From Hyphobacterium sp. (lineage in GTDB: Bacteria; Pseudomonadota; Alphaproteobacteria; Caulobacterales; Maricaulaceae), in contig NZ_CP121327.1 of assembly GCF_043584775.1 (NCBI RefSeq), positions 1,394,400-1,458,399 on the forward strand: 64,000 nucleotides of DNA, given 5' to 3'. A program made the translations under genes and the position numbers. The notes under the pieces are model-generated. The model saw nothing but the letters and a program-made list of their open reading frames with translations. It was not told where the DNA came from and made no database searches. Position 1 is the first letter of the stretch. Each line of letters starts with the position of its first letter. Of this stretch, positions 18,243 to 54,046 are shown one piece after another.

Positions 18243-18246
18243 GCCT

Positions 18247-36578: not shown

Positions 36579-36584
36579 TCTTGA

Positions 36585-36640
<56 letters not shown>

Positions 36641-36759
36641 TGAAACGTCAAAGATTTCAATACAGCGTTCCGACAAAATGGTCGGAAATCGGGGCTCTTT
36701 GCAGTTTCAGACAGGCTTGAGTCGGAACACGGAAAAACGTTTGAACGGCATCGTCCAAT

Positions 36760-37269: not shown

Positions 37270-37297
37270 TGCGACGCTCCATTCTGCATCCGTCCGC

Positions 37298-37969: not shown

Positions 37970-38194
37970 GGCCGCCCCTAAGGAATCAAAATCAGTGACT
38001 GATTGAAAACTCGTGGAAGATATCGACCTCATGCAAGGAAAACCGTGTCCCGACATTACAGGTCTGAACTAAATGCGGCCTTTAGCCGTGCCGCCAGCTA
38101 AGCCTCAGTCTCATGACTTCCGTGAATAATTCGAGGACAAGCTCAAGGAAGCCATGCGGACAGCTGACGCGAGATTGTTGAATGGATGATCGTG

Positions 38195-39118: not shown

Positions 39119-39190
39119 AGCATCCTCCGCTTGCCAAACAAAGCGCGGAAAGTCTCTATTGCTACCCCTTGGGACATGAAGCGCATATAA

Positions 39191-39925
39191 TTATGGCCTT
39201 TCCCAATCACACGAGCCCGCATCATCAACACCGCCACCGTGGACAAACTGGTTCCTTCTTCCGGTCGCCGCAAAGATGCGTTCTTCCCGTTCAGCTTCCC
39301 ATGGTGAGACCGGATCGTTTGCAGACCATTCTACAAACATGTCCCACTCATCGTCTGGAATGCGAACGCCGTGGGTGTCGTGCATGTAGAACCAAACGCG
39401 TGCGACATCGCCTCGATGGCACGGCGGCGGTTCAAACCTGCCTCGGTCGTCTTCAATCTGGCAGGAACCGTAATCGCTCGTTTCGTCTGGAAGGTCAGCG
39501 TAACGATCATTGCTGCGGTGTTGGTTCACCTGACCGATAGACGGAGCAAGATTATGAAGGTCGAAGATCATGGCCTGAGCGTTGGCATTCTCTTGTTCAC
39601 AACGACCGCGACTTCCATCCGGTCCGGCCCAGCACGCCCATTGCCTCGCCGGCATCAGTGAAGCTGGGACAATGTGCTCCCATTCAACTCGTTGAGCACG
39701 AGATGAAGCATTGTTTCCACTATCGTATCCGCAGGCATCAAGATCATCGATGGAACCTGATCCATCATTGTCTTCGTGGGATGTATATGAGCATCCGCAA
39801 TAGAACGTCGAACGATGTTCGGCCGTGTAGATGACATCGTCGGCTTCGTTCTTCGTGTCAGCCCAGTCTTGAGCAAACGCGCTGAATGGAAGCAGCAGAA
39901 GAAACAGAGCTAGGGACCGGATCAT
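39191..39925 (-). CDS. endA: Extracellular/periplasmic endonuclease I (EndA/Vvn family)
   Basis: Signal peptide MIRSLALFLLLLPFSAFAQD. Family motifs are present: TFYCGC, VEWEHIVPAS, DLHNLAPSIGQVNQHRSN, RGDVARVWFYM and REERIFAATGRRNQFV. Confidence 0.9.
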   Translation of the reverse strand: MIRSLALFLLLLPFSAFAQDWADTKNEADDVIYTAEHRSTFYCGCSYTSHEDNDGSGSIDDLDACGYDSGNNASSRAQRVEWEHIVPASLMPARQWACWAGPDGSRGRCEQENANAQAMIFDLHNLAPSIGQVNQHRSNDRYADLPDETSDYGSCQIEDDRGRFEPPPCHRGDVARVWFYMHDTHGVRIPDDEWDMFVEWSANDPVSPWEAEREERIFAATGRRNQFVHGGGVDDAGSCDWERP

Positions 39926-39977
39926 GAGCTCGTGATAACCGTGCCGATTGGGGAATATGGCAGTGTCATTGAAACCT

Positions 39978-41327
39978 TCACTCCGCAGACATCAGTATAT
40001 CAGGACGACGAATGAGCCGATCGGGAAGCTGAATGTCGACGCGATACCGGCCCGGCGGAAGAAGAAGCTGAACCTGATCCGCTGCTTCGCCTTCTTGTAA
40101 CGCATACTGGTCGGTCGCGATTGCGTTTACCACCATAGGCAAACGAAACGCTTGAACCACTGCCGGCCGATCCGAAACATCTGAAACATCAACCCAAGCC
40201 GATCGCCGATCTGGCAACTCCCACAACCATCGGGGTCGGCGATCATTTTCTCTAGCACCCTCGGTCGGGGTAAACACTACAAGGTCTGCCTGCCAACGGT
40301 CAGGCGGCGGCGCCAATGCTTGGTCATTTTGGTCTATCAGCACGCTTGGCTCGCTGAACTCGAAGCGATCTGAAATTAGTCTGGCGGACTGTGCAATACT
40401 GGTGGTCCCGATCCCGGCGCCGCTAACTTGATCTATCGTTAAAGGGTCATATCCAGTTAATTCCGAAAGCGCTGCCGCCATCCAGCCATTCTGATAACCA
40501 TCCGCAGATCGACCGGGCGTTTCGTCGAGGTGCGCAAGTCCTACATACAAGACAACACGCGCATCCGGATTTTGAGCAAAGACACGTTCAAAGATATTTT
40601 GGGCTTGGACGGTTTCGCGATGATTTATCCGAGCCTCGCGAGAGCAAGATTGAGTCGAACAGTCGAGTCTTTGATCGCTGCGCACCTCATATGGAAACCA
40701 CACAAATTGTTCGGCCACTGCGGTTTCGAGCAAATGGGCCATCATGGGGTCGCCAAAATAGAATCCCATTTCCCGAACAGGCACGCCGTTTTGATTCCAT
40801 GCCGTTTCGGAAATTTGCGAGAGTGCTTCCATGCCAAAATGCGTGAAGCCCTCGGCTCTAAGGATCGGCAGCAATTCTGCCATAAATGCTCGATGACGCC
40901 CCATTTGGTGGGATTCATTGACGATCACGACCTGCCTGCCTCGAACGGCTTCCTGAATGTATTCGATGGCGTTTGCTGCACGATAGCCTTCAAGCGCCTC
41001 TGGGGTGACCCATACTTCGTCGTCGGCTGAAATCTCCCGGTTTTCCGAAAACATTTCTGGGGCGATGATGAAATACGCCTCGTCATACCGGCCAGTGAAA
41101 TTCAAAAGCTGCGCTTCGCCATCTCTGAGAAATTGCTCTGCGAAATCGTCCGGCAATCCGTCGGGCAATACTTCTGACTGAATTGCAGCTGCGTATTCAC
41201 CTTGTGCAGCATAGCTCGTCCAAGGACGAGCAACGGCCTCTCCTTCATCTTGTGCTGACGTCAATCCGCCACCAAAGACGGTGAGCACAGCGACAAAAAT
41301 ATGCTTCATTGAAAACAATTGATGCAT
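39978..41327 (-). CDS. Exported protein with a ChaN-like (haem-binding/Tiki superfamily) domain
   Basis: A signal peptide is present (possible start at MKHIFVAVLTVFGGGLTSAQ, 41309). VVIVNESHQMGRHRAFMAELLPILRAEGFTHFGMEAL and VVLYVGLAHLDE match the ChaN/Cofac_haem_bdg pattern as I recall it. Confidence 0.45.
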   Translation of the reverse strand: MHQLFSMKHIFVAVLTVFGGGLTSAQDEGEAVARPWTSYAAQGEYAAAIQSEVLPDGLPDDFAEQFLRDGEAQLLNFTGRYDEAYFIIAPEMFSENREISADDEVWVTPEALEGYRAANAIEYIQEAVRGRQVVIVNESHQMGRHRAFMAELLPILRAEGFTHFGMEALSQISETAWNQNGVPVREMGFYFGDPMMAHLLETAVAEQFVWFPYEVRSDQRLDCSTQSCSREARINHRETVQAQNIFERVFAQNPDARVVLYVGLAHLDETPGRSADGYQNGWMAAALSELTGYDPLTIDQVSGAGIGTTSIAQSARLISDRFEFSEPSVLIDQNDQALAPPPDRWQADLVVFTPTEGARENDRRPRWLWELPDRRSAWVDVSDVSDRPAVVQAFRLPMVVNAIATDQYALQEGEAADQVQLLLPPGRYRVDIQLPDRLIRRPDILMSAE

Positions 41328-41477
41328 GGAACCCTCTCCCCATTCCGTCCAGCCTCGATTCTCTGCGGAGGTGAAATCGTCAGCTAGTAAACAACTACAG
41401 CCAAATTAACTGCGACCAAAGGTGGTGGGGATGTTAGAGTCGCCGATGGCAAAAATAAGGCGCCCAAATAGACCAAG

Positions 41478-41576
41478 CCCTATTGAGGCTTTGCAGGCGG
41501 TCTTAATCTGGCGTCACTAGAATTGCATCATCCCTATTGAAGCCTGTGCCGCACAATGTCCTGACCCTATTGAGGC
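41478..41576 (+). repeat. Three direct copies of the 12-mer CCCTATTGA(G/A)GC in the AT-rich intergenic region upstream of the DUF3644-like gene
   Basis: Copies lie at 41478-41489, 41532-41543 (one mismatch) and 41565-41576. The last copy ends 67 nt before the ATG at 41643. Confidence 0.8.
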
Positions 41577-41642
41577 CTACTCGCTGGCGTAAAATTCTAG
41601 AATCCTTACTATCGCCGAAGTTGATAGGCGAATGGGATTAAA

Positions 41643-42830
41643 ATGGCAAAGCCACGCGCGACCCTTGAACGAGCAGAAATTGCTATCGTGAAGGCGATGG
41701 TGAAAACCAAGAAGTATAATGATCAGCAAATTCTTGCGTTTTTCACCCGACCAACTCGCTCCATCAATCATCGCGTTATCGGTGAAATTCGCAGTAATAC
41801 GAAGTATGCCAATATCAAAGCTGCGTCAGAGTCACAGTTGGATCAGTTTCTTGATCGATGGCCGGACGTTGATCCAGAAACCGGATTAAGTAATAGCGGC
41901 GATGAACTGTTGATCAAAGCTCGTGAGGCGATGATAGCGGCTGTCCATATATTCAACGGTGCTGGGCTCACGTTCCGCTCAGAACTGTTCATCGTGACCG
42001 CAGTGATTGCATGGACCTACCTCTGCCATTCTTGGTTCAATAAGCACGGTATTGATTATCGCCATCGCGATACCAAAGGAAACGTCGTTAAGACCGCGGA
42101 AGGCGCCGAAAAGTACTGGGAGCTAAGCCAGTGTTTGAAACATGGTGACCTACCTATTTCCGAGGGCGGCAAGATAAATCTCCGGTTTCTGTTGGAACTT
42201 CGACATGAAATCGAACACCGTTCAACCTCGGCCATCGACGACAGCGTTGGAGCCCAATTGCAGGCTTGCTGCATCAATTTCAATAACTTCATCCGTGAAG
42301 AGTTTGGCAGACAATTCGGCTTGGAAAAGCGACTTCCCATCGCGCTCCAGTTCGTGACTTTTGATAACCGACAGCGTGCTGAACTGATATCGGCTGATCT
42401 ACCAGCCAATATATCGTCAATGTTGGAAACCTTTCGGAACAAGCTGACGCAGGAACAATTTGCTGATCTTGACTATGCCTACAGAGTGATTTTCGTACCC
42501 AAAATCGCCAACAGCAAAAGCAAAGCCGATGTTGCCGTTGAATTCGTTAAAGCGGACTCGCAAGAGGCAATCGATGCAAATGCTGTCTTCTTGAAAGAAA
42601 CCGACAAGAAGAGATATTTACCGTCAGCTGTTGTGAAACTGATGCAAGACGAAGGTTATTCGAAATTCAAAATGCATGACCACACCGAACTTTGGCAGTC
42701 GCTTGATGCAAGAAACCCGGCAAAAGCATTTGGAACACAAGGTGACTACAAAGGCTCTTGGGTTTGGTACGAGAATTGGGTTGAGCGGGTTCGTGCCCAT
42801 TGTGAAGAAAACGCCGAGCAATATCGATGA
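41643..42830 (+). CDS. DUF3644-like hypothetical protein (AT-rich orphan)
   Basis: 395-aa ORF. The segment ELLIKAREAMIAAVHIFNGAGLTFRSELFIVTAVIAWTYLCHSW resembles the DUF3644 core as I remember it. This is the most AT-rich gene in the island. Confidence 0.4.
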   Translation: MAKPRATLERAEIAIVKAMVKTKKYNDQQILAFFTRPTRSINHRVIGEIRSNTKYANIKAASESQLDQFLDRWPDVDPETGLSNSGDELLIKAREAMIAAVHIFNGAGLTFRSELFIVTAVIAWTYLCHSWFNKHGIDYRHRDTKGNVVKTAEGAEKYWELSQCLKHGDLPISEGGKINLRFLLELRHEIEHRSTSAIDDSVGAQLQACCINFNNFIREEFGRQFGLEKRLPIALQFVTFDNRQRAELISADLPANISSMLETFRNKLTQEQFADLDYAYRVIFVPKIANSKSKADVAVEFVKADSQEAIDANAVFLKETDKKRYLPSAVVKLMQDEGYSKFKMHDHTELWQSLDARNPAKAFGTQGDYKGSWVWYENWVERVRAHCEENAEQYR

Positions 42831-42897
42831 AAACGGATATCCTGCACCGCATTTAGTTGCAGAAATTCATTGGGCGCCCCATCTGCAATTTCCCAGC

Positions 42898-43534
42898 ATG
42901 ATGGAGCCCCACCATAATCATCGGATACGCACGAACATCGACATCTGACCAAACCGCAGGCCTCGAAGCCCAGATCACAGAACTGACCAAAGCTGGCGCC
43001 GATCGCATCTTTCAGGAACAGGTTTCCAGCGTCACCAAGCGGGACGAACTGGAAGCGGCCCTTGATTATCTTCGTGATGACGACGTGCTTATGGTCACCA
43101 AACTTGATCGTCTTGCCCGGTCTGTTTCTGACCTTATGAGGGTCATCGAACGTATCAAAAACCGAAACGCATCATTGCGTATTCTTGCCATGAATTTGGA
43201 TACTGAATCTGCCACCGGGAAGCTGATGATCTCGATCCTTGGATCAGTGGCTGAATTCGAAAGAGAGATCATGCTGGAACGTCAGCGTGAAGGCATTTCA
43301 AAAGCCAAGGCCGCCGGAAAATACAAAGGTCGTGCCCCAACCGCCCGACATAAGGCTGAACAGGTTTTGGGTTTGATTGGAAAGGGTTGGAAGCAGGCGG
43401 ATGTTGCAGTCGAATTGGGGATATCTCGGTCCAGCGTTCAGCGGATCGTCCGCAATGATATAGAAAACGGCCGTGAAGATGACCGCGGCGGTGGCCTCAC
43501 TCTTCCGGGAGTCGCGAACTATGGGAATAAATGA
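42898..43534 (+). pseudogene. Serine recombinase (resolvase/invertase family) with a frameshift at its extreme 5' end
   Basis: The frame open from 42902 encodes ..PTIIIGYARTSTSDQTAGLEAQITELTKAGADRIFQEQVSS...DVLMVTKLDRLARS...AEFEREIMLERQREGI and a C-terminal HTH (LGISRSSVQRIV). This frame has no start codon. ATGATG at 42898-42903 is in the adjacent frame, and removing one C from the C4 run at 42907-42910 would give MMEPTIIIGYARTSTSDQ. The ORF track starts only at the internal GTG 43085, which would lack the catalytic Ser. Confidence 0.75.
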
Positions 43535-44024
43535 TCATTCGGCGATCCGCTTCGATTTCTCTCACATACAGCGACACAACAAGTCGAAATACGTCTTCAT
43601 CTCCCGCAGGCGATAACCGGCTGCCGCCAATCTGTATGACCAGAATATATCCGCCTTCAAGATAGAGAGCCGATGGTGGGCTGAATTGGACGTCATACCT
43701 CCCGCCGCCTTCGCACAAGCTTTCGAACCAAGCTGTGTTTCCGCCTAGCTGCCTTGCACTGTCCGTCGGAAAGCCAACGATCCATGCGTCATTGTTGACC
43801 ACCTGTTCAAACAACACCGCATCACATTCGTTCAGTGCCAGTTGATACGTGTTCAGGAGACCCAAGGCTCCGGGAATATTCGATTCGATGAATGCGGCGG
43901 TCTGACTATCCGGGTCTGGGAGTGATTGAGAAAAAACAGGAGCCGAGACAACGGCATTGCCCAGCATGACCAATATCGTTGGCAAACTAAGCCTTAACAT
44001 CAATGCGGAGCTTAATTCGGACAT
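43497..44024 (-). CDS. Hypothetical exported protein (possible NTF2/SnoaL-like fold)
   Basis: 175-aa ORF with an N-terminal hydrophobic signal-like segment (LSLPTILVMLGNAVVSAPVFSQ). Its 3' end overlaps the recombinase 3' end convergently by 38 nt. The fold guess rests only on size and pattern. Confidence 0.5.
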   Translation of the reverse strand: MSELSSALMLRLSLPTILVMLGNAVVSAPVFSQSLPDPDSQTAAFIESNIPGALGLLNTYQLALNECDAVLFEQVVNNDAWIVGFPTDSARQLGGNTAWFESLCEGGGRYDVQFSPPSALYLEGGYILVIQIGGSRLSPAGDEDVFRLVVSLYVREIEADRRMIIYSHSSRLPEE

Positions 44025-44968
44025 TGGGGCGCATCAGGCCCTGTGTAGGCTTCGGCGATTGTGGCAAGTCCTACACTAATTCGCCGATCATCAATGTGAT
44101 CAGGGTCTTCGTATTCGAGGATATTGATCTCGCCGTCTTGGCATCGCCAATGTGTTCCATAGCGCTGAGGCTGATCATTGTTGAGCAAAATCCGGTCAAC
44201 CAATCGTGCCAACAATCTCGGCTGGGCCCGTCCTTCTGCGACTTCATTCTCCAACATGGGAAGAAATGCTTCTTGTCGTTCTAGACTTCCATGTTGAAGA
44301 ATTAGCCATGCCGCATCAATTGCTGCATTCGGAGCCTCATCCAAAGCCGGCCAACCGTGTTCTTCAACAAACGCGTCCAAATACACGCCATTGGATTCGT
44401 CTGCCTCACACCATCGAAACGCTACCGCTTGCCAAATGTATTGAAACAACTCCGGGTTCTCTTCGACGAATTGAGGCTGATCTTGGCGTCGAACTCGCCG
44501 CCACCATTGATCAGACTCCAACCGCATAACCAATTCCCGATAAATATTACTCTCGGCAATATCCGCAACGGCTTCTTCTTGTGCCTGTAACAAGCGAAGG
44601 TCTTGCTCCATCATCCAACCTCTGCCCTGTTCCAACAGCGGTCGATAGTCAGCTAGTTCCTGATTACGTGTCGCCAGTATTCCACCCGCCGAAAAGCCTC
44701 TTGCGATACACGGCAACACACCTGACGGGATGGGGTCTCCGGGTTGATATCCCGCCTCTCTCGCCGGCGCTCGAAAACTGGCCCAAAGTTCAGCACTCGA
44801 TGAAACAACCTCTGGGTTTTGCATGGCTAGAATGTATGGGGACCAATCTGCCAAGACGGGATCGATCTGTCTGGATTCAATCCCGTTCAATAGTGCCAAA
44901 GCATCTTCAACATTGTCGGCCCAAGCAGTGCCAGAAATAAAAAGAATCCAGATGATCAAAATACGCAT
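44012..44968 (-). CDS. Exported protein, member 1 of a three-member island paralog family (possibly DUF6624-like)
   Basis: Signal peptide MRILIIWILFISGTAWA. The C-terminal block HGWPALDEAPNAAIDAAWLILQHGSLERQEAFLPML...LVDRILLNNDQPQRYGTHWRC...IDDRRISVGLATIAEAY aligns with 47891-48556 and 49916-50689. Confidence 0.6.
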   Translation of the reverse strand: MRILIIWILFISGTAWADNVEDALALLNGIESRQIDPVLADWSPYILAMQNPEVVSSSAELWASFRAPAREAGYQPGDPIPSGVLPCIARGFSAGGILATRNQELADYRPLLEQGRGWMMEQDLRLLQAQEEAVADIAESNIYRELVMRLESDQWWRRVRRQDQPQFVEENPELFQYIWQAVAFRWCEADESNGVYLDAFVEEHGWPALDEAPNAAIDAAWLILQHGSLERQEAFLPMLENEVAEGRAQPRLLARLVDRILLNNDQPQRYGTHWRCQDGEINILEYEDPDHIDDRRISVGLATIAEAYTGPDAPQCPN

Positions 44969-45194
44969 CGCGTGCCCCTGAGATATTGGCTCTGCGCGTA
45001 TTCAAAACCCGCCGCCCCCATAATTCAACTCGAAATTTAATTGAGTTGGTTCCGATGCGGGTTGCAACGTGCAGGTGGTTTCAGCCACGTTGTTTTGCAT
45101 GAAAGGTCGATACGTTCGGCGCGCTGACCTGCGCCCATAGTGGCCTCGTATATATTGCGAATCTGACCAGTGAAGCTGCGGTGTTTTTGACTCT

Positions 45195-45647
45195 CTATCT
45201 AAGCGCAGAGAGATGGCTGTGCTGGATGAGCATTGTTCCGGTATCATCTGGCGCAATGATCAACGTTACGCGCAAATTGTTTGGTGTGAGTTGACCTTCT
45301 GTGGAGATCATGTCGCCTAAGAAAACAGCCGCAATCGTGTGAACTTGGTTAAACGCCCAATGACGGTTGATTGTGACTTCGAAATTGAATGTCGTGCCGT
45401 TCTCGCAGAACGAACGAAACTGATTGATTGCTCCGGCTTTGTCAGCGCTTAGTTGGCCATGAACTCCAAAGCCAGCCCACTCTTCTGACGTAATTTCATC
45501 TAGCAACTCAGCGCTACATTGCTCGAAAACCTGTTCAAACTGGGCAAGCCACTCAAGTGCGGATGATCTGTCGCTCGGCTCCTGTGCGCTGGCAGCAGAA
45601 GCAATGCTCAAACAAACCGCGAGTTTCAGCATCTGCATCCTAGGCAT
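45195..45647 (-). CDS. Hypothetical exported protein (possible NTF2/SnoaL-like fold)
   Basis: Signal peptide MPRMQMLKLAVCLSIASAASAQ. 150 aa. It overlaps the upstream small membrane ORF by 8 nt. Confidence 0.5.
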   Translation of the reverse strand: MPRMQMLKLAVCLSIASAASAQEPSDRSSALEWLAQFEQVFEQCSAELLDEITSEEWAGFGVHGQLSADKAGAINQFRSFCENGTTFNFEVTINRHWAFNQVHTIAAVFLGDMISTEGQLTPNNLRVTLIIAPDDTGTMLIQHSHLSALR

Positions 45648-45870
45648 TGCGATCCATCTTCGTTGTGCTTTCGGCGGCCTGCCAGATTGTCATGGCAGTA
45701 ATAACTAATGCCACAACCAGCATTGAAAACGCAGCAGCGGCCCAGCCTGCAACAATCTCCCCTGTAGCAAGCCAACTGAATGCGGTCATAGTCAAAAAAG
45801 CCAATGCAAGCATCCAAAAGATAATGGCAGAAAAACGCAATCCACCGATCATTTTTATGATAGCCCTCAT
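45640..45870 (-). CDS. Small 2-TM membrane protein
   Basis: 76-aa ORF MRAIIKMIGGLRFSAIIFWMLALAFLTMTAFSWLATGEIVAGWAAAAFSMLVVALVITAMTIW. It is translationally coupled to 45195-45647. Confidence 0.45.
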   Translation of the reverse strand: MRAIIKMIGGLRFSAIIFWMLALAFLTMTAFSWLATGEIVAGWAAAAFSMLVVALVITAMTIWQAAESTTKMDRNA

Positions 45871-46063
45871 GCATACTCCAATGCTGTCGTATGTGGCACC
45901 GACCTACACGAGTGACAGCTTAAGTTTGAAGCGCCCCACCCTGCAAGCAGTGGTGTGGTCATGATAGCTGCGCCTAGGCAATTTCCTTTTACCCCCTCTG
46001 CTCGATGGTGGGAGTTGATATTTACAATTCGGACAAGGTCGAATTCGGGAAGCCAAATTCCAA

Positions 46064-46609
46064 TTAGCTAATCGCTCGATATAACGTCGACCGGGACACC
46101 CCCAACTGATCCGCAATCGACTGCATCGAGTGACCACCAGAAGATTTCAACTTCTTGGCCATCTGAATCTGATTGTCGGTCAATGCAACGGGACGCCCCA
46201 ACCGTATTCCTTTTGCCTTCGCATTTGCCAGACCGGAACGAGTGCGTTCACCGATTAGTGCCCGCTCATATTCAGCCAGCGCCCCAAATACATGGAACAC
46301 CAACCTTCCCCCAGCAGTAGTCGTGTTGATATCTTCTGTGAGTGAAATGAAACCGACATTCTGATCACCCAGATGATCCACGGTTTCAATCAGTTGTCGG
46401 AGGGAGCGCGCAAGCCGGTCCATTTTCCAGACCACCAGCACATCACCTTCACGGAGGTATTTCAGGGCTTCTAGAAGCTTCGGCCGATCACGCTGGGCAC
46501 CTGATGCAGATTCTTCGAAGATCATCTGACAGCCTGCTTCTTTCAAAGCGGCAATCTGCATCTCGTTTGATTGATCTTCGGTGCTTACCCGGGCGTAACC
46601 GACCTTCAT
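46064..46609 (-). CDS. Small serine recombinase (resolvase / Hin-Gin-type DNA invertase family), apparently intact
   Basis: The start is taken at MKVGYARVSTEDQSNEMQIAALKEAGCQMIFEESASGAQRDRPKLLEALKYLREGDVLVVWKMDRLARS. It continues GALAEYERALIGERTRSGL and ends with the HTH IADQLGVSRSTLYRAIS. About 181 aa. Confidence 0.9.
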   Translation of the reverse strand: MKVGYARVSTEDQSNEMQIAALKEAGCQMIFEESASGAQRDRPKLLEALKYLREGDVLVVWKMDRLARSLRQLIETVDHLGDQNVGFISLTEDINTTTAGGRLVFHVFGALAEYERALIGERTRSGLANAKAKGIRLGRPVALTDNQIQMAKKLKSSGGHSMQSIADQLGVSRSTLYRAIS

Positions 46610-46617
46610 GAATTCTC

Positions 46618-46683
46618 CTGTGCCAAAAACGGCTTCTGCAAATGGTGACACAGTTTGGAATTTCAAGAGGGTTTTTGACACAG
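46618..46683. promoter_or_regulatory. Candidate recombinase-binding (res/hix-like) or operator region immediately upstream of the serine recombinase
   Basis: A 13-bp inverted repeat CTGTGCCAAAAAC (46618-46630) / GTTTTTGACACAG (46671-46683) matches at 12 of 13 positions and has a 40-bp spacer. An extra direct TGACACAG lies at 46646-46653. The region starts 9 nt from the recombinase ATG. The half-site resembles the Hin hix half-site TTATCAAAAACC as I recall it. Confidence 0.4.
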
Positions 46684-46897
46684 CGAATGGATTGATATCC
46701 GATCCCCCGGTGGTCACTAGATGGTCGTGTCAGTTACGGTCGTTTTTGGGCCGCCGGTTTTTTGTGTCCAAATGGATTTTCACATTCGAACTTGCCGCAA
46801 CTGATATTGATTCACATCAATTTTGTGAAAATGCTTCTCATTCTTTCAAGTATTTCCGTTTTTCGCCGATTTATTTGAAAAATCGCCCTGCTCTCGT

Positions 46898-46927
46898 TTG
46901 ACGCTCCTGTCTTTGCGGGCCTAACAT
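46898..46927 (+). promoter_or_regulatory. Possible sigma70-type promoter for the Tat-repeat peptide gene
   Basis: TTGACG (46898-46903), then 18 nt, then TAACAT (46922-46927), about 60 nt upstream of the ATG at 46989. Pattern match only. Confidence 0.3.
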
Positions 46928-46988
46928 CCGCTTGCGAGGTATTCGGCCTTCGGGCTGACAGGCAAAAAAATCAGGGAGGCCCACTCAC

Positions 46989-47327
46989 ATGGCCAAAAAA
47001 GGTAAACTCAGCCGTCGTTCTTTTCTAACTCGCGTTGCTGGAACGACGCTAGCGGCAGGCGCCGCAGCTAGCATTACAGGTGTTGCTCTCGCTCAGAACA
47101 GAACCGGACGGACCGATTCCGACACCGGCAACAGTGCCGACCGCGCTGGTTATGGTAGAACCGGCGTTACCGACAGCGATACCGGCGGCAATTCTGACCG
47201 TGCCGGCTATGGCCGGGGAAGTTCTGTGGATCGTACCGGCTCAGGGCGCAACTGCTCGGACAGCGACTCAGGCAGCTATGCTGACCGTGCCGGCTATGGC
47301 CGTCGCTGCAACGATTCCGATCGCTAA
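46989..47327 (+). CDS. Tat-signal small secreted protein with Asp/Ser/Gly repeats
   Basis: GGGAGG lies 9 nt upstream of the ATG. The twin-arginine signal is MAKKGKLSRRSFLTRVAGTTLAAGAAASITGVALA. The mature part of about 77 aa contains three copies of [TC]DSD[TS]G-x2-3-DRAGYGR plus a degenerate copy, and two Cys residues. Confidence 0.7.
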   Translation: MAKKGKLSRRSFLTRVAGTTLAAGAAASITGVALAQNRTGRTDSDTGNSADRAGYGRTGVTDSDTGGNSDRAGYGRGSSVDRTGSGRNCSDSDSGSYADRAGYGRRCNDSDR

Positions 47328-47397
47328 TTTTTCTGGTCTCGGCGGCTAGTCCTCCGAACCAATCTTGTAGAGAAACCGGTCGTTTTTGACCAAGTGA

Positions 47398-47829
47398 CTA
47401 TTCGCCTTGATCTTTTGACCGAGCAGGAGGATCGCCCTCTTTACGTACTCCCATCGCTATCAGACGTCGCCTTAGTCCAGTGGGGTGACCATGAGTGCGT
47501 TGATATTCGGCTTCACGCTGCCGTCTGCTTTCCGTTCGCGACGTAGACTCTAAGCCCATGAGTCTGACGCGGATCAAATTCTCTATCGGTTCAATCAGCA
47601 GGACTTGTCCGCCATCAGTGAAAAAAGCGCCCCCAAACAGGAGCGGAAGTAACAATGCCGTCACCCAAGGCAGGTCCATGTAAAGGCGCAGAAATGCAAT
47701 GACACAAAAACTAATAAGCGAGCCTAGAACGCAGGCTATGACAAACGCGAAGAATAATGCGGCGCTTGCTCGTTTTTGCCATTCAACGCCGTCTTTGGGC
47801 ACAGTACCCTTGTCCTCTTGATTGTGCAT
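47398..47829 (-). CDS. Hypothetical membrane protein with a basic C-terminal tail
   Basis: 143-aa ORF with two or three hydrophobic helices (AALFFAFVIACVLGSLISFCVIAFL; WVTALLLPLLFGGAFF), followed by an Arg/Glu-rich cytoplasmic tail. Confidence 0.5.
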   Translation of the reverse strand: MHNQEDKGTVPKDGVEWQKRASAALFFAFVIACVLGSLISFCVIAFLRLYMDLPWVTALLLPLLFGGAFFTDGGQVLLIEPIENLIRVRLMGLESTSRTESRRQREAEYQRTHGHPTGLRRRLIAMGVRKEGDPPARSKDQGE

Positions 47830-47890
47830 GATCAGCTCAACCCTCGGCCGGGCAAGGCCATGAATTCAAGACTGCCGGGAACCCGTAATT

Positions 47891-48556
47891 TTAGCGACAT
47901 CGGTTTTCTGTGATTCTAGTTGTATATTGACCTATCGACCCGAGGCCAATTTCGGCCCTCCGATTGTCTACATTGTCACGGTCGACAATCGGAAACGGGA
48001 CGAAAACACCTTCATCGCAACGACCTTGCGATCCATAGAGTTGTTCGCCTTGTGTCCGCCAATGCACGCGGTCAACAAAAAGGGCATACTGTTGAGGCGA
48101 TAACACGTTGGCCGAAAACAACCCGTCAATGACCTCCATGCCATTCTGAGCGAGCCATACCTGATTATGATGGTGTTGCATCAGCAGCCAAATGCCGACG
48201 CCAACATCACTCGAAATGTAACCCGCGTTGGGCGCAATCAAATCGCCGCAATTTTCAATAATCTGTTGAACCAGTTCGTCGTGGGCCATGCTGACGTGAT
48301 AAGCTGCGTTATCGGTATATAATGTCAGCCTCTCTCCAAGCGGGGGATTTCCGATTCCGGGTGACCAATTTCGCCTAAGCAATTGGTCAACTTCGGCAGC
48401 AGCAAGCACCTGTTCGAACCTATTTTCACAAAGGACTATCCGGTCTCGTTCAACTTCATCAGCCTTTTCTGGCGCCAGAGCTGTTTCAGCGACGGTCGCT
48501 TGCATGCTGGCCAACACGATAATCCAAACAATGCTTGGCATGTCCCATACTTTCAA
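47891..48556 (-). CDS. Exported protein, member 2 of the island paralog family (possibly DUF6624-like)
   Basis: Signal-like N-terminus MKVWDMPSIVWIIVLASMQATVA. The C-terminal block GIWLLMQHHHNQVWLAQNGMEVI...FVDRVHWRTQGEQLYGSQGRC...VDNRRAEIGLGSIGQY is shared with the other two members. Confidence 0.6.
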   Translation of the reverse strand: MKVWDMPSIVWIIVLASMQATVAETALAPEKADEVERDRIVLCENRFEQVLAAAEVDQLLRRNWSPGIGNPPLGERLTLYTDNAAYHVSMAHDELVQQIIENCGDLIAPNAGYISSDVGVGIWLLMQHHHNQVWLAQNGMEVIDGLFSANVLSPQQYALFVDRVHWRTQGEQLYGSQGRCDEGVFVPFPIVDRDNVDNRRAEIGLGSIGQYTTRITENRCR

Positions 48557-48742
48557 TCTGCTCGTAAACTAAAAACCGACCTAACGCGCTTCCGGTTACA
48601 TCAGGCGCAAGACCGGACCTTTTGCGTTGAACGAAGGCAATTCACACCACCACCCTTATAGTTGAGTTGCTCCCAAAACTTCGCAATAGTTGCAAGCTAT
48701 TTTGAACACAACGGCCGTATCCACATAACCGCAGGGGCAATA

Positions 48743-49885
48743 ATGATTGAAAATGCGTTGATCGCTATCGGTTTCGTGATGGCATTGGATGGCGCCGTCG
48801 AATGTCCGGAATCGGAGTCCTATTGCATTCTCGACACCGAAATCCCGGCGGAAGTCCTCGCGGAGCAACTCCAAGGGTTGGATGAAACCTATTGGGTAGA
48901 AGGCAACACACTATTTGCGGCTGCTAGGCGGGAAAGTGAAAGTGTATTTTTTTGCTGTGCGGTTCAAACGTCTATGCGGCGGGCCGGCGATAGCGATTAT
49001 TGGTATGTAGCAGTCGAAGTGCCACGGATCAGCGAAGCCATTCTTGATATTTTTCCAATACCGTTTGATTTGCCCGGGCGCCGCCAGCCATTCCAACCAT
49101 TAGAATACTGGGGGCCTGATGCACCCCCGCGTGTAGATCGAAATCCGGTTACAGAAATCCACGTCACCGACCAAGCGATAGATAGCGAATCTCTAAACGC
49201 GATCCGTCAAATTTCAATCTACGAACCGCCTGAACTTGCTGGTTCTGAAAATCATCCGGTAGTTTTTTTGGCTGATGGGCAAGGCACAGGCGTTTTTGCA
49301 GCAATTGCCCAGTCCCTTATAGAGGCTTGCCGAATTGAACCGGTCCTTCTCGTCGGCCTCTGGCATGGGAATGTTGAAGGCGAACATTATCCCGGAAATG
49401 CTTCTGACCCAAGAAGTCATGACTATCTCTGGGGTGTCGATGGCGGTCATTTCGAACAATACGAGGCTTTCTTCTTGAACGACGTAATGCCGCTAGTCGA
49501 ACGACGGTATAATGCCAGCGATGAGCCCAGTCGTAGGGCGCTGTTTGGCAATTCAAGTGGCGGGGCATGGGCATTATCCACCGGCCTCAGAAATCCTGAA
49601 ACATTTGGCACAATTGCAGCAGCATCAACGGTATGGCGGCGATCTATCAATGCAGCACCCCCGACCGAAGGCCCACGCTACATTTTCACGACCGGGCTCC
49701 TTGACCAACGTGCACAAACTGCGTTGGACGATATTATGACCGGCTTTGCCGAGACCGGAGCTGACCATGAATCCCGCACATTGGTTGCTGGCCATTCTCC
49801 ACTCGTTGCGTATCGAGCCTTCGCTGATTTGCTTTTGAGTGAGTTTCCTGCCGCCGAGGATGCTGGTTGCGGGCCCGATGAATGA
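48743..49885 (+). CDS. Alpha/beta-hydrolase esterase, enterochelin-esterase (Fes/IroE)-like
   Basis: The start is taken at ATG 48743 (AGGGG 7 nt upstream). The nucleophile elbow is LFGNSSGGAWAL (GxSxG). The N-terminal beta-rich domain (YWYVAVEVPRISEAILDIFPIPF) and the overall layout resemble the putative-esterase/enterochelin-esterase family. Confidence 0.55.
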   Translation: MIENALIAIGFVMALDGAVECPESESYCILDTEIPAEVLAEQLQGLDETYWVEGNTLFAAARRESESVFFCCAVQTSMRRAGDSDYWYVAVEVPRISEAILDIFPIPFDLPGRRQPFQPLEYWGPDAPPRVDRNPVTEIHVTDQAIDSESLNAIRQISIYEPPELAGSENHPVVFLADGQGTGVFAAIAQSLIEACRIEPVLLVGLWHGNVEGEHYPGNASDPRSHDYLWGVDGGHFEQYEAFFLNDVMPLVERRYNASDEPSRRALFGNSSGGAWALSTGLRNPETFGTIAAASTVWRRSINAAPPTEGPRYIFTTGLLDQRAQTALDDIMTGFAETGADHESRTLVAGHSPLVAYRAFADLLLSEFPAAEDAGCGPDE

Positions 49886-49915
49886 AGTCCTCCCCTTAAC
49901 GCATTCGAGCAATCA

Positions 49916-50689
49916 TTGATGATAATCTCGTTTCTAATCGCGGCATTCACCGCTTCGTCTGATTGCCCTCTCGAAATACCGAGCATCTCGGCTGTTCAAA
50001 CCGATGAAAGCCATCAAGATTTGGTAGAGGCCTATCATGAGGACTTAGTCGAACGGCTAAGGCATCTTGAATCTCCAACGGAAGAGCCGACGAATGCGTG
50101 GGAGTATTTCCTATCGGCCGACCAAACAACCGCGGACGAGCGAGCCAGTTGCCTTTTGAACCTTGTTTCGCACGACATGTATATCCGATTGGAATTGGGG
50201 CGACTTGGACAGGAAGCGGCACCAGAAGACGAACGTCGCCAGTACATGATCAGCGCCTCACGCACGATGGCAGCGATAGATCAACGAAACCGGGAGTGGC
50301 TGCGTGGCCAAGTCGAAAATCATGGTTGGTTTTCCATCAGCGGGTTTGGTGAAGACGCTGACCAAGCCGCTTTTCTGATCGTTCAACACGCGGACGGTGA
50401 CATCGCATTCCAACAAGAGATGCTCGATTTGCTATTGCCGCTGGCGGCGTCAGGCGAGACAAGTGTCATCGGCTTCTCCTACTTGATGGACCGCGTGGCC
50501 GTGAATACCGGCGAGCGACAACTTTATGGGACACAAGGTTGGTGTACTGGTCCCAATAGTTGGGAGCCACGCGAGTACGAAGGATCGAGGCAAGATGTTG
50601 ATGGACGACGACAGGCTATCGGTCTTCAACCGCTAGAAAACTACATCTCTCACATTGCCCAAAATTGCACTACTGATCAGCGATACTGA
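49916..50689 (+). CDS. Exported protein, member 3 of the island paralog family (possibly DUF6624-like)
   Basis: The N-terminus is hydrophobic (MMIISFLIAAFTASSDC, possibly a lipobox). The block HGWFSISGFGEDADQAAFLIVQHADGDIAFQQEML...LMDRVAVNTGERQLYGTQGWC...VDGRRQAIGLQPLENY is shared with the other two members. Confidence 0.6.
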   Translation: MMIISFLIAAFTASSDCPLEIPSISAVQTDESHQDLVEAYHEDLVERLRHLESPTEEPTNAWEYFLSADQTTADERASCLLNLVSHDMYIRLELGRLGQEAAPEDERRQYMISASRTMAAIDQRNREWLRGQVENHGWFSISGFGEDADQAAFLIVQHADGDIAFQQEMLDLLLPLAASGETSVIGFSYLMDRVAVNTGERQLYGTQGWCTGPNSWEPREYEGSRQDVDGRRQAIGLQPLENYISHIAQNCTTDQRY

Positions 50690-50827
50690 GCAGCCAGAAT
50701 CATCGTTGATGGCTCTCGCATGGATCAAAATTCCAGTGCCCGGACACGATTCTTCTTGGCCCTGACATGGTTTTAGTGGCGCCATGTTCAGAACAGGCGA
50801 GCCTCGATTCGATTGGCGAGTTACCTA

Positions 50828-51490
50828 ATGAAAGAAAAGCCAAAGCCGGAAAAGAAATCGGAGTCCTTGGAGATCAGGGTAGCACCACATGAAAAGGCTG
50901 CCTTTCTACAAGCATGCCGAAATTTGGGCCTCACAGCTAGCAACGTTCTTCGTCAATCAATGCGGGCATTTGTCCTGCGCCAAACCAACCTTCTTCCTCG
51001 AAAAGGGATAGCGATGATCACAACAGCTTTGATCGGAGTCTTCGGATGGGTAATGCTTGGCTCGTATCAGGCGGGCGCAGCCCCAATTAATACGGATGTC
51101 GATTTACAATTTCATTACGTCGATGAAAGCGGAACTCTATCTCGCCGCCGAATGTCGGCGCAATTGGATATGGAGTTGGGGGAAACCGTTTCGATGTATG
51201 TGAACGATGACGGCCCTTTATCGATTGCCAGTTTTTTTGATGCGCCAGAATCTATGGAGGGCTCACGTATCCGTATCGATCTCACCGCAAGGGCCGCATC
51301 TGTCGATGATCAAGTGACTTATAATGCGATCCTTCGTCTGATAGGCGCCGATGGAGAATTTGTTGGTGAACCTATCGAACCTGAGCTGACAGTAAAATAT
51401 GGGTCACAAGCCGAAATTGTCATCGGGTTTGAAGTCTTTGGCGCATCTGATGAGATGTTGGAAATCAGCCTCCAGCCGAATGTCAGATAA
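50828..51490 (+). CDS. Membrane-anchored ribbon-helix-helix protein, second copy of the architecture
   Basis: MKEKPKPEKKSESLEIRVAPHEKAAFLQACRNLGLTASNVLRQSMRAFV forms the RHH. It is followed by the TM helix IAMITTALIGVFGWVMLGSY and a periplasmic domain of about 145 aa ending LEISLQPNVR (compare LISISLRPAL in 37298-37969). Confidence 0.6.
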   Translation: MKEKPKPEKKSESLEIRVAPHEKAAFLQACRNLGLTASNVLRQSMRAFVLRQTNLLPRKGIAMITTALIGVFGWVMLGSYQAGAAPINTDVDLQFHYVDESGTLSRRRMSAQLDMELGETVSMYVNDDGPLSIASFFDAPESMEGSRIRIDLTARAASVDDQVTYNAILRLIGADGEFVGEPIEPELTVKYGSQAEIVIGFEVFGASDEMLEISLQPNVR

Positions 51491-51557
51491 ATCCCTCGAG
51501 GCGAACATTTAACTCTGCCGGTCATTGATCAAAACATCAGCCGAGGCGGCGCTTTTA

Positions 51558-51974
51558 TCAATTCGACAGCCCATCCGACGACGCCACGACGATTGACGCA
51601 TTGTCCCTCAACCGGGATCGAAACACATGCTGATCATTCACCGACTTGATGTGCTCCAAGATCGCTTGAAAGTCAGATCGACAATTCGTGCCAATTTTAA
51701 ACAAGGTCGACGAAGTAACATTGGCACCATCTGAGGCGGCCTCATCTGGCAGCACTAATTCCTCAGCAAATACGGGTTCGATGCAATTGATAGAAATGAA
51801 CTCGCCATTCTTCTTTAGCTCGACAATGGGCTGGTCGTTGTAGAGGTATCGATCCCCGCGTAATTTCACGTGTCCGGCGTGGAAAATCAGCAGATTGCTT
51901 TGCTTTAAAAGGGTGAGTTCAAAGCAGTCCTGCACCCGCATTTTTTGTTGATCTCGTATATTGAATAATTTCAC
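51558..51974 (-). CDS. Hypothetical cytoplasmic protein
   Basis: About 138 aa. A strong RBS GGAAGGAG precedes the GTG/TTG start (51974/51977). No recognisable motif. Confidence 0.5.
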   Translation of the reverse strand: MKLFNIRDQQKMRVQDCFELTLLKQSNLLIFHAGHVKLRGDRYLYNDQPIVELKKNGEFISINCIEPVFAEELVLPDEAASDGANVTSSTLFKIGTNCRSDFQAILEHIKSVNDQHVFRSRLRDNASIVVASSDGLSN

Positions 51975-52181
51975 CAAAATTCTCCTTCCCTCTATTTAGG
52001 GCCGGTCGCCATTTGAGTGTTCCCGAGGCCTCTAGAATGCCTCTGAGTGGCCAATTCTCTCGGTTAATCGGGGGAAGTATGAACGCCTCGATGCGGAAAA
52101 TCGTACAAAGCTAGTAGAGCCAAAGTGCAAAAAAATGGGCCGGAACTTTCATTCCGACCCTCTAGATATTGATGGGAGCCA

Positions 52182-52289
52182 TCAAAGAAAATCTGAAAAG
52201 AACTTGGAACCTAGTTTTTGCTTCTTGTCGGCCTTCTCTTCGAATATGCCCGCAGCCCATGCCTCTATCTCCGAGGGTTTCCAGACCTT
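52182..52289 (-). pseudogene. Possible C-terminal remnant of an AlpA/excisionase-type HTH protein, truncated by the IS element
   Basis: The reverse frame abutting the IS left end reads KVWKPSEIEAWAAGIFEEKADKKQKLGSKFFSDFL then a stop. W-x2-SEIEAW is the typical C-terminal motif of AlpA/Xis-like DNA-binding domains. Only 35 codons remain, so the call is weak. Confidence 0.35.
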
Positions 52290-52319
52290 GTGACCCAGCC
52301 CCCTGATCCGGGCTGATCG

Positions 52320-53243
52320 TTAGTAGAGTCTGTTCGCCTTTCTTTCTGGTTTTGGTTCAAGGTTCAAGGCCCGGTGAGCGGAGCCCATGCGTAGCTCAGG
52401 CGAACCGGGCCGGTGTTTGCGGGTTTGCTGGGCGTAGATGACCGGGGCCAGCCCTCCCAGCGAGGTGTGGGGCCGGCAGGTATTGTAGTCGATCCGCCAA
52501 GCCTCGATCAGGGTTCGCGCTTCGGAGAGTGACGAGAACAGGTGCTCGTTCAGGCACTCGTCCCGCAGGCGGCCATTGAAGCTCTCCACGAAGCCATTCT
52601 GCTGGGGCTTTCCCGGGGCGATGTAATGCCATTCGACACCGCGCTCTTTCTGCCAGCGTAGGATGGCGTGGCTTGTCAGCTCCGTGCCATTGTCCGAGAC
52701 GATCATGGCCGGCTTGCCGCGCCGGGCGATGATCCGGTCCAGTTCCCGGCCCACGCGCACGCCCGAGAGCGAGGTGTCGACCGTGATCGCCAGTGCTTCA
52801 CGGGTGAAGTCGTCCACCACGCACAGGGTGCGGAAGCGACGCCCGTCGGTAAGCGCATCCGCCACGAAGTCCAGGCTCCAGCGCTGGTTGGCGCCGCTCG
52901 GCAGCAGCATGGGACGGCGCGTTCCCGTGGCCCGCTTGCGGCCCCGGCGTCGGCGTACCGCCAGACCTTCCTCGCGGTAGATACGGTAAAGCTTCTTGTG
53001 GTTCGCATTCAGCCCCTCCCGGGCCAGAAGAATGCCCAGACGGCGATAGCCGAAGCGGCGACGTTCGCCAGCCAGGTCGCGCAACCGCTCACGTAGACGC
53101 TCATCGCCCGCATCGCGCTTGCGATACTGGAAGGTCGAGCGGTCCAGCCGGACCAACCGGCACGCCCGACGCTCGCTCAGCCCGTGCGCCTCCACCAGGT
53201 GACGCGCGACCCGCCGCTTCACATCGGGCGTTAGAAGTTTTTT
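52320..53243 (-). CDS. IS3-family transposase OrfB (DDE/RNase-H catalytic domain), expressed as an OrfAB fusion by -1 frameshifting
   Basis: After a -1 slip at AAAAAAC the frame reads [31 protein letters not shown]...NQRWSLDFV...[11 protein letters not shown]...[23 protein letters not shown] (D, D, E region). The part of the 402-aa track ORF upstream of the slip site is not expected to be translated. Confidence 0.9.
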
Positions 53244-53497
53244 GAGGCGAGATCCTTCAGCGCCGCATTGTCCAGCATCTGCTCGGCCAGTAACCGCTTC
53301 AGCTTGGCATTCTCTGCTTCCAGCGTCCGTAGACGCTGAGCATCCGACACCGTCATGCCGCCGAACTTGGCCTTGTACTTGTAAAAGGTCGCGTCCGAGA
53401 TGCCGTACTTGCGGCATAGCTCCTTCGTCGTGACACCCGCTTCGTGCTCGCGGAGCATCCCGATAATCTGTTCTTCCGAATAACGGCTCTTGCGCAT
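53231..53497 (-). CDS. IS3-family transposase OrfA (HTH)
   Basis: 88-aa [91 protein letters not shown], with a leucine zipper. The slippery heptamer A-AAA-AAC lies at 53243-53237. Confidence 0.92.
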
Positions 53498-53558
53498 CGT
53501 CCATCCTCTTCTCGATGGACTCTACCATCCCGTGGCCGGAATTCAGGGGGCTGGGTCA

Positions 53559-53906
53559 ACAGCTGATGAGCCCATCATCCGGATGCGATCTGGTACACCA
53601 TATAAAAACAAAGACACTTTCGCGAAAGACTTCCGAAAAGTTCGAAACCTTGCATTCAAAGCCGACGTTCGGACCTTCAAGGACATACGCCGATCAGGCA
53701 ATCTCGAGGCAGACTTGGGCGATGCATCAGCGGAAGATCGAGCGGAGATTCTTGCTAACACCCTTCATAAGAGCGGGTATCTTGAAGCCACTTATACACC
53801 GGCCACTGTAGCCCGCGGAAAAAAGATTCGGGACAACCGGGCTGCCGGCCGCGCCCTGCTCGAGGCCGAAAAAAAAGCCAAGAGTCGGAACGATGATGAG
53901 AAATAG
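53559..53906 (+). pseudogene. Tyrosine integrase, C-terminal ~115 codons only (5' part removed at the IS junction)
   Basis: Beginning exactly at the IS right end the frame reads TADEPIIRMRSGTPYKNKDTFAKDFRKVRNLAFKADVRTFKDIRRSGNLEADLGDASAEDRAEILANTLHKSGYLEATYTPATVARGKK.... The FKDIRRSG (HxLRR-box position) and ATY (catalytic Tyr region) layout fits the C-terminal catalytic domain. The position next to the tRNA att site is typical. Confidence 0.65.
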
Positions 53907-53963
53907 AGTCGGAACGAGTCGGAATGGAGCGCGCCACTTCCTGCATATTATTGATTTTATTGC

Positions 53964-54046
<83 letters not shown>

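Follow-up and report, generated by a model that had tools for sequence, protein, structure and literature searches.

Is the cluster of short repeats beside a serine recombinase gene in Hyphobacterium sp. an invertible switch, a resolution site, or a set of operators? The cluster lies in a 64,000-nucleotide stretch of contig NZ_CP121327.1 (positions 1,394,400 to 1,458,399; the window hereafter), where a gene for a protein with a Tat signal stands next to the recombinase gene. A preliminary description of the window proposed that the repeats delimit an invertible or resolvable segment. We conclude that the region upstream of the recombinase gene, which belongs to a genomic island in a tRNA-Asp gene, is probably the res site for this small serine recombinase, with three subsites composed of half-sites that recombinase dimers would bind. 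The module is a Tn3-type res/resolvase pair of the invertase-like subfamily, a kind already known, and not a Hin-type switch.

A probable res site upstream of the recombinase gene

Ten distinct relatives of the locus were collected and their res sequences compared over the ~150 bp upstream of the recombinase start codon (ATG). These ~150 bp are conserved at fixed spacing in all ten, with the core of site I at -131/-132 from the ATG, half-site M at -74, and dyad P at -44 to -8. The fraction of the ten sequences that have the commonest base (majority-base identity) is 0.85–0.91 for the sites and 0.68 for the spacer; just outside site I it drops to 0.45, a background value. The half-sites follow the consensus yTGTGTCAAAAACG, with a 2-bp core AC in gene orientation. 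A half-site position weight matrix (PWM) was built from the other loci, with the window left out, and scored at 128,000 positions of the window.

Site I, the putative crossover site (46725–46754), is the subsite furthest from the gene. On the + strand it reads TCGTGTCAGTTACG GT CGTTTTTGGGCCGC, two inverted half-sites of 13–14 bp around a core at 46739–46740; in gene orientation it is a 28-bp dyad, nGTnnCAAAAACG-AC-CGTAWYTGACAC, at -145 to -118. The geometry is 13+2+13 with an invariant CG-AC-CG centre, homology breakpoints map there, and the cleavage position is putative. The central sequence AACGACCGT is invariant in the ten loci, and identity falls to background just outside the site. Near-perfect site I palindromes are found in L019, L043, and L066. 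Within the 480 kb of sequence collected, the pattern [AT]AACG-NN-CGTT[AT] is confined to site I positions, one site-I-like palindrome of plasmid pPABY8, and 60530 in the window.

A variable 41-bp spacer separates site I from half-site M (46670–46683, - strand; CTGTGTCAAAAACC), the middle subsite, which has the form yTGTGTCAAAAMC and is fixed at -74 in nine loci. Its PWM score of 19.8 is the second best of all positions scored. The best (19.9) belongs to the first half of accessory dyad P (46618–46653), the equivalent of res site II/III, whose half-sites at 46618–46631 (+) and 46640–46653 (-) overlap the Shine-Dalgarno (SD) sequence. In the window P reads CTGTGCCA-N20-TGACACAG, 36 bp with 12-bp halves 10 bp apart; its consensus is CTGTGYCA-N20-TGRCACAG (CTGTGTCA-N20-TGRCACAG), ending in the AGGAG ribosome-binding site. 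The position of P is fixed in nine loci, identity in the block is 0.91, and a P-type dyad with a different outer sequence is also present in plasmid relatives. A three-subsite res of ~120 bp, with site I distal and the last subsite at the start codon, is found in the ten loci, M having one clear half.

Between M and P lies a conserved TCTTGAAAT block (46660–46668, - strand), whose TCTTGAAA does not vary among the ten clade-A res sequences. This block is possibly the -35 element of the recombinase promoter. TCTTGAAA is kept in plasmid relatives despite their altered half-site specificity, and in most of the more distant loci overall, and shows no covariation with the recombinase; because it is unchanged while the outer half-site bases switch, it is likely something other than a base read by the recombinase, perhaps a -35.

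The motifs of the preliminary description are all at the positions given there: CTGTGCCAAAAAC at 46618–46630, GTTTTTGACACAG at 46671–46683, TGACACAG at 46646–46653, the octamer CGTTTTTG at 46624 (minus strand), 46741, 47381, and 47771, and the 12-mer CGGTCGTTTTTG at 46737–46748 and 47377–47388. Over the whole window CGTTTTTG is not enriched (5 found, 2.76 expected), and all five copies fall in 46.6–49.3 kb. Local Markov composition predicts 0.07–0.08 copies per 1155 bp, where four are seen, and the probability of finding four of five within 1155 bp, given five events in a 16-kb low-GC island, is 0.0065. The cluster therefore exceeds chance, as had been claimed. The octamers are the inner A/T-tract portion of the half-sites, and three of the four exact copies are half-site cores. 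A claimed 12/13 inverted repeat has both of its arms, but pairing 46618–46630 with 46671–46683 is not functional: the latter is a separate half-site and not the partner of the former, and the real dyads are 46618–46653 and 46725–46754. The noted resemblance to a hix half-site holds, with TCAAAAAC in the same register beside a 2-bp core, and so does the fallback proposal that the motifs are res subsites or operators.

Several other matches were not accepted as sites. The octamer at 47771 and a variant at 46857 were rejected for lack of a site-level PWM score; the variant is instead conserved in the upstream regions of the Tat-gene family. An octamer at 49291 and half-site-like matches at 43150, 45888, and 63872 were likewise examined and not accepted. 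The match at 45888–45901 (-), CGGTGCCACATACG followed by AC, lies just upstream of the 76-amino-acid gene that follows the recombinase, has the orientation of site I, and is moderately conserved in L015 and L066.

A complete recombinase of invertase-like sequence

The small serine recombinase gene (46064–46609, - strand) is an intact open reading frame (ORF) of 181 amino acids that starts with the ATG at 46609, with AGGAG ahead. The preliminary description had called it intact, and the protein is complete, with Pfam Resolvase at residues 3–134 (E 7e-45) and HTH_7 at 138–178. It has the N-terminal catalytic domain, active-site serine near residue 10, and C-terminal helix-turn-helix (HTH) of a small serine recombinase, and its YARVS motif and MDRLARS align with Gin and Tn3 resolvase. 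Its best PDB match is Gin invertase, aligned end to end (153 bits, E 4e-44), against 98 bits for Tn3 resolvase and 95 bits for gamma-delta resolvase. An invertase-type GRP motif precedes the HTH, and the protein matches phrog_125, "DNA invertase," at 4e-71 (PHROGs), so by sequence (Gin, phrog_125) it is a member of the invertase cluster. Invertase-like sequence alone does not define function, and ISXc5 is by analogy a precedent: its resolvase, as described in PMC12217951 and PMC7157771 with reference to Liu et al. 1998, is of a subfamily close to invertases and uses a three-subsite res.

The nearest relative in a sequenced genome is from Maricaulis salignorans (83% amino acid identity). Relatives in metagenomes reach 91%, the close set spanning 81–91%, and more than 5000 plasmids carry a gene for a relative. 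Look-ups for exact copies of the recombinase, in 181- and 217-amino-acid versions, and of the Tat peptide gave no match, and near and distant DNA searches of plasmids gave remote matches to the recombinase gene only. The 217-amino-acid version, an extension to an upstream GTG, was rejected: upstream conservation is without codon periodicity, an SD sequence precedes the ATG, and homologues all begin MKVGYARVS. Because of the missing periodicity and the placement of the SD sequence, gene calls of 200–229 amino acids for relatives in databases, like the 217-amino-acid GTG ORF here, are on sequence grounds over-extensions.

By analogy with the Tn3/gamma-delta, ISXc5, and SGI1 systems, recombinase dimers would bind the yTGTGTCAAAAACG half-sites, and two directly repeated res sites on one molecule, such as an island or plasmid multimer or a cointegrate, would form a synapse by way of their accessory sites. 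Double-strand breaks at the 2-bp core of site I, a rotation of 180 degrees there, and rejoining would then resolve the multimer. Binding at the proximal subsites P and M would also repress the recombinase promoter.

Five points weigh against this assignment. The nearest solved relative, by sequence, is Gin, an invertase and not a resolvase. The middle subsite has only one convincing half-site, its partner half being weak or indistinct. No second res copy or multimer is visible in the single assembled window. A Tn3-type transposase is absent, and the element served is assumed to be the island or, in relatives, a unit bracketed by IS6-family genes. Lastly, dimer binding, the cleavage position, and resolution are steps that we infer.

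Covariation and breakpoints in related loci

Changes in the half-sites of more distant relatives point to the recombinase as their reader. In L002, L033, and L043 (52%–62% identity) the dyad core is at ~-134, a half-site lies near -62, and another abuts the SD sequence; the outer half-site sequence is TGATWATC in place of TGACACAG. Plasmid relatives from Salipiger, Marinibacterium, Sediminicoccus, and Sphingobium (56%–57% identity) keep the layout with outer bases CTCTCA or CTCC. Within a locus the outer bases switch jointly in all subsites, and the inner CAAAAACG-NN-CGTTTTTG is constant. Such joint change would be expected if the HTH of the recombinase reads the outer bases, and because of this covariation across all subsites of a locus we take the half-sites to be recombinase sites.

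Breakpoints of homology fall at site I. From the first base of CAAAAACGACCG onwards, L016 and L018 share 98.4% identity for 5.7 kb; ahead of it they are unrelated, with a type I restriction-modification system beyond site I in one and a 671-amino-acid gene in the other. Similarity of the window to L001, L005, L015, and L021 begins at 46748–46754, the outer edge of site I. At the level of sequence, these breakpoints argue that the recombinase family exchanges DNA there. The DNA outside site I varies by locus and often encodes a defence system (BREX or type I restriction-modification). No second site was found in relatives within 4–5 kb. A shared segment of ~165 bp upstream of res was considered as a second recombination site and rejected, as it is the 3' end (or a remnant) of hsdR and has no half-sites.

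This HsdR C-terminal segment (…FDEGMG*) recurs in L001 (5024–5197), L005 (3700–3865), L015 (1846–2017), L018 (4004–4177), L019 (4032–4198), and L021 (1720–1812). A 53-amino-acid remnant of it also follows BrxL, suggesting that a defence system at this spot was replaced by another. In L011 (4686–5100; also L012–L014, L028, and L029) there is no res, and the recombinase ATG is joined directly to a 5' fragment of a P4-type integrase gene that lies beside tRNA-Thr.

Marine metagenome contigs from TARA Oceans carry res, the recombinase gene, genes for 76 and 150 amino acids, and a DUF6624 gene, 84% identical to window positions 46716–43744. In L066–L071 the same block, followed by a 94-amino-acid gene, lies between two same-strand IS6-family (DDE_Tnp_IS240) transposase genes (e.g., L068 108–4842) and looks like a composite mobile unit.

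A Tat-protein gene at the site I core

A 640-bp unit (46741–47380, + strand) lies between two cores and contains the Tat gene, a promoter-like site, and two terminator arms. The gene (46989–47327, +) encodes a repeat protein of 112 amino acids with a Tat signal and four DSDxG..DRAGYGR repeats, and the promoter-like TTGACG-18-TAACAT is at 46898–46927 (+). The right arm of a terminator, CCGGTTTTTT (46755–46764), lies against site I, 230 bp upstream of the Tat gene; the left arm, AGAAACCGG (47371–47379), follows the gene. At the far end is a hybrid sequence, here called copy 2 (47365–47394; TTGTAGAGAAACCG GT CGTTTTTGACCAAG), with a half-site at 47381–47394 and a core at 47379–47380. The 12-mer that it shares with site I takes in the core and two further identical bases; copy 2 is in direct orientation to site I with its core 640 bp away, and it has no matching second half. 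Its half-site scores 10.5, rank 9 of the 128,000 positions. With true res subsites set aside, AC follows a half-site scoring this high or higher only 1–2 times per 526,018 positions, a background of ~2–4 per million positions, or ~0.004 expected within 1 kb.

The Tat protein belongs to a family with 277 homologues, found in Maricaulis, Hyphobacterium, sphingomonads, and caulobacters, among others, and built of DSDxGxxxDRAGYGR repeat units. In L022 an 81%-identical homologue occupies an ordinary chromosomal setting in a tandem array of four paralogues (551–2993), and at least two of these genes are followed by an A-tract/hairpin/T-tract terminator (e.g., GATACCGGTTGTTTTCGGACAGCCGGTATTTTTTT). 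Joining 47388 to 46749 in the window gives AGAGAAACCGGTCGTTTTTGGGCCGCCGGTTTTTT, which is again an A-tract/hairpin/T-tract terminator. It folds at -14.6 kcal/mol, compared with -8.1 and -7.2 for the two present junctions, and the rejoined sequence (47325–47388 plus 46749–46991) is collinear with both L022 intergenic regions. Because joining the ends of the unit recreates the terminator of the family, we lean towards entry of the 640-bp unit into site I by recombinase-mediated exchange at the core.

Capture would take one reciprocal exchange at the GT core, between a resident site I and a look-alike, CCG GT CGTTTTTG, in the loop of the Tat terminator, with a circular or tandem copy of the Tat unit as substrate. 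An ancestral site I reading …GTCAGTTACG-GT-CGTTTTTGACCAAG… and a terminator loop reading …AGAGAAACCG-GT-CGTTTTTGGGCC… would yield both observed junctions. The hybrid half-site and core at 47365–47394 would be left behind, and the present site I would have gained an outer half derived from the terminator. The outer half of site I in the window, GCGGCCCAAAAACG, scores 9.0, the weakest of all loci (others at least 11.9). The PWM does not tell which outer half-site is ancestral, as 46741–46754 (9.0) and 47381–47394 (10.5) are both weak. Excision of the unit would give a deletion junction GTCAGTTACG-GT-CGTTTTTGACCAAG and a circle junction AGAGAAACCG-GT-CGTTTTTGGGCCGCCGG. The earlier proposal of a resolvable segment is kept in this weaker form: direct copies of half-site and core bracket the Tat unit, and from the sequence its deletion would be geometrically possible.

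Some results count against the insertion step. The copy 2 score of 10.5 is no better than some chance matches in the window, and the rebuilt terminator is only moderately better than shuffled sequences (z = -1.73, 9/200). Neither an empty site (…GTCAGTTACGGTCGTTTTTGACCAAG…) nor a donor locus was found. Events driven by microhomology or homology, or proceeding in two steps, would give the same product.

The strongest competing explanation is that a terminator loop of the Tat family resembles a half-site by chance and that unrelated rearrangements, with no capture, brought the gene next to res. By arithmetic from the window length and 4^12, ~7–8 exact 12-mer pairs within 1 kb are expected per 64-kb window, the score of copy 2 is modest, and a terminator in L022, where no recombinase gene is called, resembles the motif (ACCGGTTGTTTTCGG). 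The repeat in the window is no arbitrary 12-mer, however, as it coincides with the invariant centre of site I, and a half-site followed by AC is expected only ~0.004 times within that distance. Simple adjacency also leaves unexplained why the terminator arms stand at opposite ends of the unit, and L021 repeats the pattern with a strong half-site (17.3). We regard chance resemblance as a serious minority possibility.

Entry by exchange at the core may have parallels in other loci. In L021, GTGTGTCATAAACG followed by AC (PWM 17.3) lies outside and 624 bp upstream of site I, and the interval contains a single gene on the opposite strand. On Salipiger abyssi plasmid pPABY8 (L064 2995–3675) site I and a second, site-I-like palindrome, CTCTCAAAAACG GT CGTTTTTAAGG, enclose a ParD/ParE pair, although the cores differ, site I having CT on the L064 strand and the second palindrome GT. 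Because of these three footprints (the Tat unit in the window, the one-gene unit in L021, and ParDE on pPABY8), we suggest, speculatively and with more doubt than confidence, that site I of this widespread alphaproteobacterial res family is a recurrent point of gene capture, where the resolvase integrates small circular or tandem units that carry a look-alike half-site and core. Such capture would leave hybrid sites on both sides of a unit.

A survey of Tn3-family transposons (2020) found gene pairs consistently adjoining res site I, with no clear molecular route of acquisition (PMC7157771). The window has a complete gene unit exactly at the crossover dinucleotide, with a terminator split between its ends, and so offers a testable route of acquisition through a pseudo-site. 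If recurrent capture is true, it would be the serine-recombinase counterpart of cassette acquisition and would explain the regular presence of small units next to res site I, among them toxin-antitoxin (TA) pairs and defence genes.

Operators or an invertible switch

The motifs might instead be operators only, serving autoregulation and perhaps also regulation of the divergent Tat gene, with recombination lost, for example, when an insertion weakened site I. Dyad P overlaps the SD and promoter region, and the outer half of site I in the window is, as described above, the weakest of all loci. In the SGI1 island, disruption of res inactivates resolution with the gene intact, and a half box I is unbound (PMC12217951). 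Against this, the protein has kept a conserved catalytic domain of full length, site I retains an unbroken centre, AACGACCGT, that does not vary among the loci, and the site I breakpoints in relatives argue that the family recombines there. Regulation and recombination also coexist in Tn3-type systems, and we consider a purely regulatory role improbable.

Hin and Gin invertases act on two inverted 26-bp crossover sites, with a Fis-bound enhancer that is usually in the 5' part of the recombinase gene. The preliminary description proposed a comparable switch, in which the recombinase inverts the ~760-bp segment from 46624 to 47381 and so flips the Tat gene and the recombinase promoter. Despite the likeness of the protein to Gin and phrog_125, a half-site (TCAAAAAC) that fits the hix register, and the existence of oppositely oriented octamers, this is very unlikely: 46624 lies in the right half of P, whose halves are 10 bp apart in accessory geometry and not 12+2+12; the only core-bearing copies (46739 and 47379) both read GT on the + strand and are direct repeats; PWM and palindrome scans found no inverted partner of site I in the 64 kb or in relatives, which have no second site within 4–5 kb; the conserved M and P are accessory subsites, a feature of resolvases and not of invertases; and inversion would part res from its gene, when their arrangement, which the preliminary description had suggested comparing, is fixed in 10 of 10 res sequences and in many metagenome contigs. 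Identification of the region as a res site averts a false call of a phase-variable switch.

Comparison with known systems

Tn3-type resolvases act on two res sites in direct repeat, and their site I is a dyad of 28–30 bp cut at the central 2 bp. In gamma-delta, site II spans 34 bp, with 10 bp between its 12-bp halves, and a Tn3-family transposon has a DDE transposase, TnpA, of ~1000 amino acids and terminal inverted repeats of 38–40 bp. The module described here resembles the Tn3 and gamma-delta systems in its small serine recombinase with a C-terminal HTH, in an upstream site of ~140 bp with three subsites of 12–14-bp half-sites, in a distal 28-bp crossover site with an accessory site at the gene start, and in the halves of P, spaced as in gamma-delta site II. 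It differs in having no Tn3-type transposase or 38-bp terminal repeats, a protein nearer to invertases, a core of AC instead of AT/TA, and a long dyad that is gene-proximal. In addition, site I is ~6.5 turns from the next subsite, and the half-site (TGTGTCAAAAACG) is hix-like. A Tn3-type res is ~120 bp long, with box III beside the gene, box I distal, and 4–7 turns between boxes I and II (PMC12217951).

The nearest functional analogue, judged by likeness of arrangement, is the Res/res system of SGI1, in which box I has AC as its core and which clears multimers of the island (PMC12217951). Both have a resolvase and a three-subsite res on an integrative island, an AC core, foreign DNA directly upstream of the resolvase gene, and, as a proposed role here, the removal of island multimers. 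The hosts differ, Salmonella for SGI1 and a Maricaulis-like alphaproteobacterium here. In SGI1, transposition brought In104 into the I-II spacer and produced 5-bp duplications (PMC12217951), whereas here copies of half-site and core flank the extra DNA, which lies at the core of site I. ISXc5-type enzymes, likened here by description, also combine an invertase-like sequence with a three-subsite res; they sit in Tn3-family transposons, unlike the module here. Hin, Gin, Cin, and Pin share the features that make Gin the best match, the GRP before the HTH and TCAAAAAC beside a 2-bp core, but the loci studied here each have one full crossover site plus accessory sites, and the extra copy is direct.

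The Tat unit is also comparable to the TA pairs of Tn3-family transposons (PMC7157771), being a small self-contained unit directly outside site I and divergent from the resolvase gene. Plasmid relatives of the recombinase show this TA arrangement, with ParDE outside site I. The cargo here differs, being a Tat-signal repeat protein, and its junctions suggest a route of entry. Integrons combine a tyrosine integrase, IntI, with attI and hairpin attC sites. No IntI-type tyrosine recombinase was found in the island, and the sites are serine-recombinase dyads, so likeness to integrons is confined to the cassette-like outcome. The analysis defines a binding code, yTGTGTCAAAAACG with an AC core, for a large group of invertase-like resolvases that are carried by alphaproteobacterial islands and plasmids and have yet to be characterised.

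The genomic island and its other genes

The module is carried on a low-GC genomic island of ~17.4 kb (36577–54019), bounded by 64-nt direct repeats (36577–36640 and 53956–54019) that are 97% identical and match the 3' part of tRNA-Asp, itself at 53970–54046 (-). GC content is ~51% in the island and ~60% around it, a difference of ~9 points. The res/resolvase pair is thus island-borne, as in SGI1, and the L011 relative is beside tRNA-Thr and an integrase remnant. No tyrosine recombinase or integrase was detected inside the island. There is also no TnpA or Tn3-type terminal repeat: the largest island ORF has 449 amino acids, and the sole transposase is IS3-type (rve; 52320–53528). With no ORF of TnpA size and a transposase of IS3 type, the module is an orphan res/resolvase and not part of a Tn3 transposon. 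The IS3-family insertion sequence (52291–53558) has perfect 16-bp terminal inverted repeats (52291–52306 and 53543–53558) and a 402-amino-acid rve transposase, and it occupies the expected location of an integrase, just within the end of the island nearest the tRNA gene.

A second small serine recombinase (Resolvase and HTH) is encoded at 42902–43534 (+). Its frame is open from 42902, has no ATG, GTG, or TTG before codon 62, and starts ATA ATC ATC GGA TAC GCA. Either its start codon has been mutated or translation begins at a rare ATA/ATC start. The half-site-like match ACGTATCAAAAACC (43150–43163; PWM 15.1) is within this gene. Searches with PADLOC and PHROGs returned nothing for a 143-amino-acid ORF or most other island ORFs, and an Rfam search of 45.5–48.5 kb returned no RNA family. 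In PADLOC, a DUF3644 protein (41643–42830, +) has a match (E 2e-113) to PDC-S19, a candidate defence family, and an Endonuclease I gene (39191–39925) is nearby. Three DUF6624 paralogues with a common C-terminal motif, …QxYGTQ..C…DxRR..xGL, occur within 7 kb (44012–44968, -; 47891–48556, -; and 49916–50689, +). Elsewhere in the window, AT skew is strongly positive (0.16–0.26) from 12000 to 20000, over several long minus-strand ORFs.

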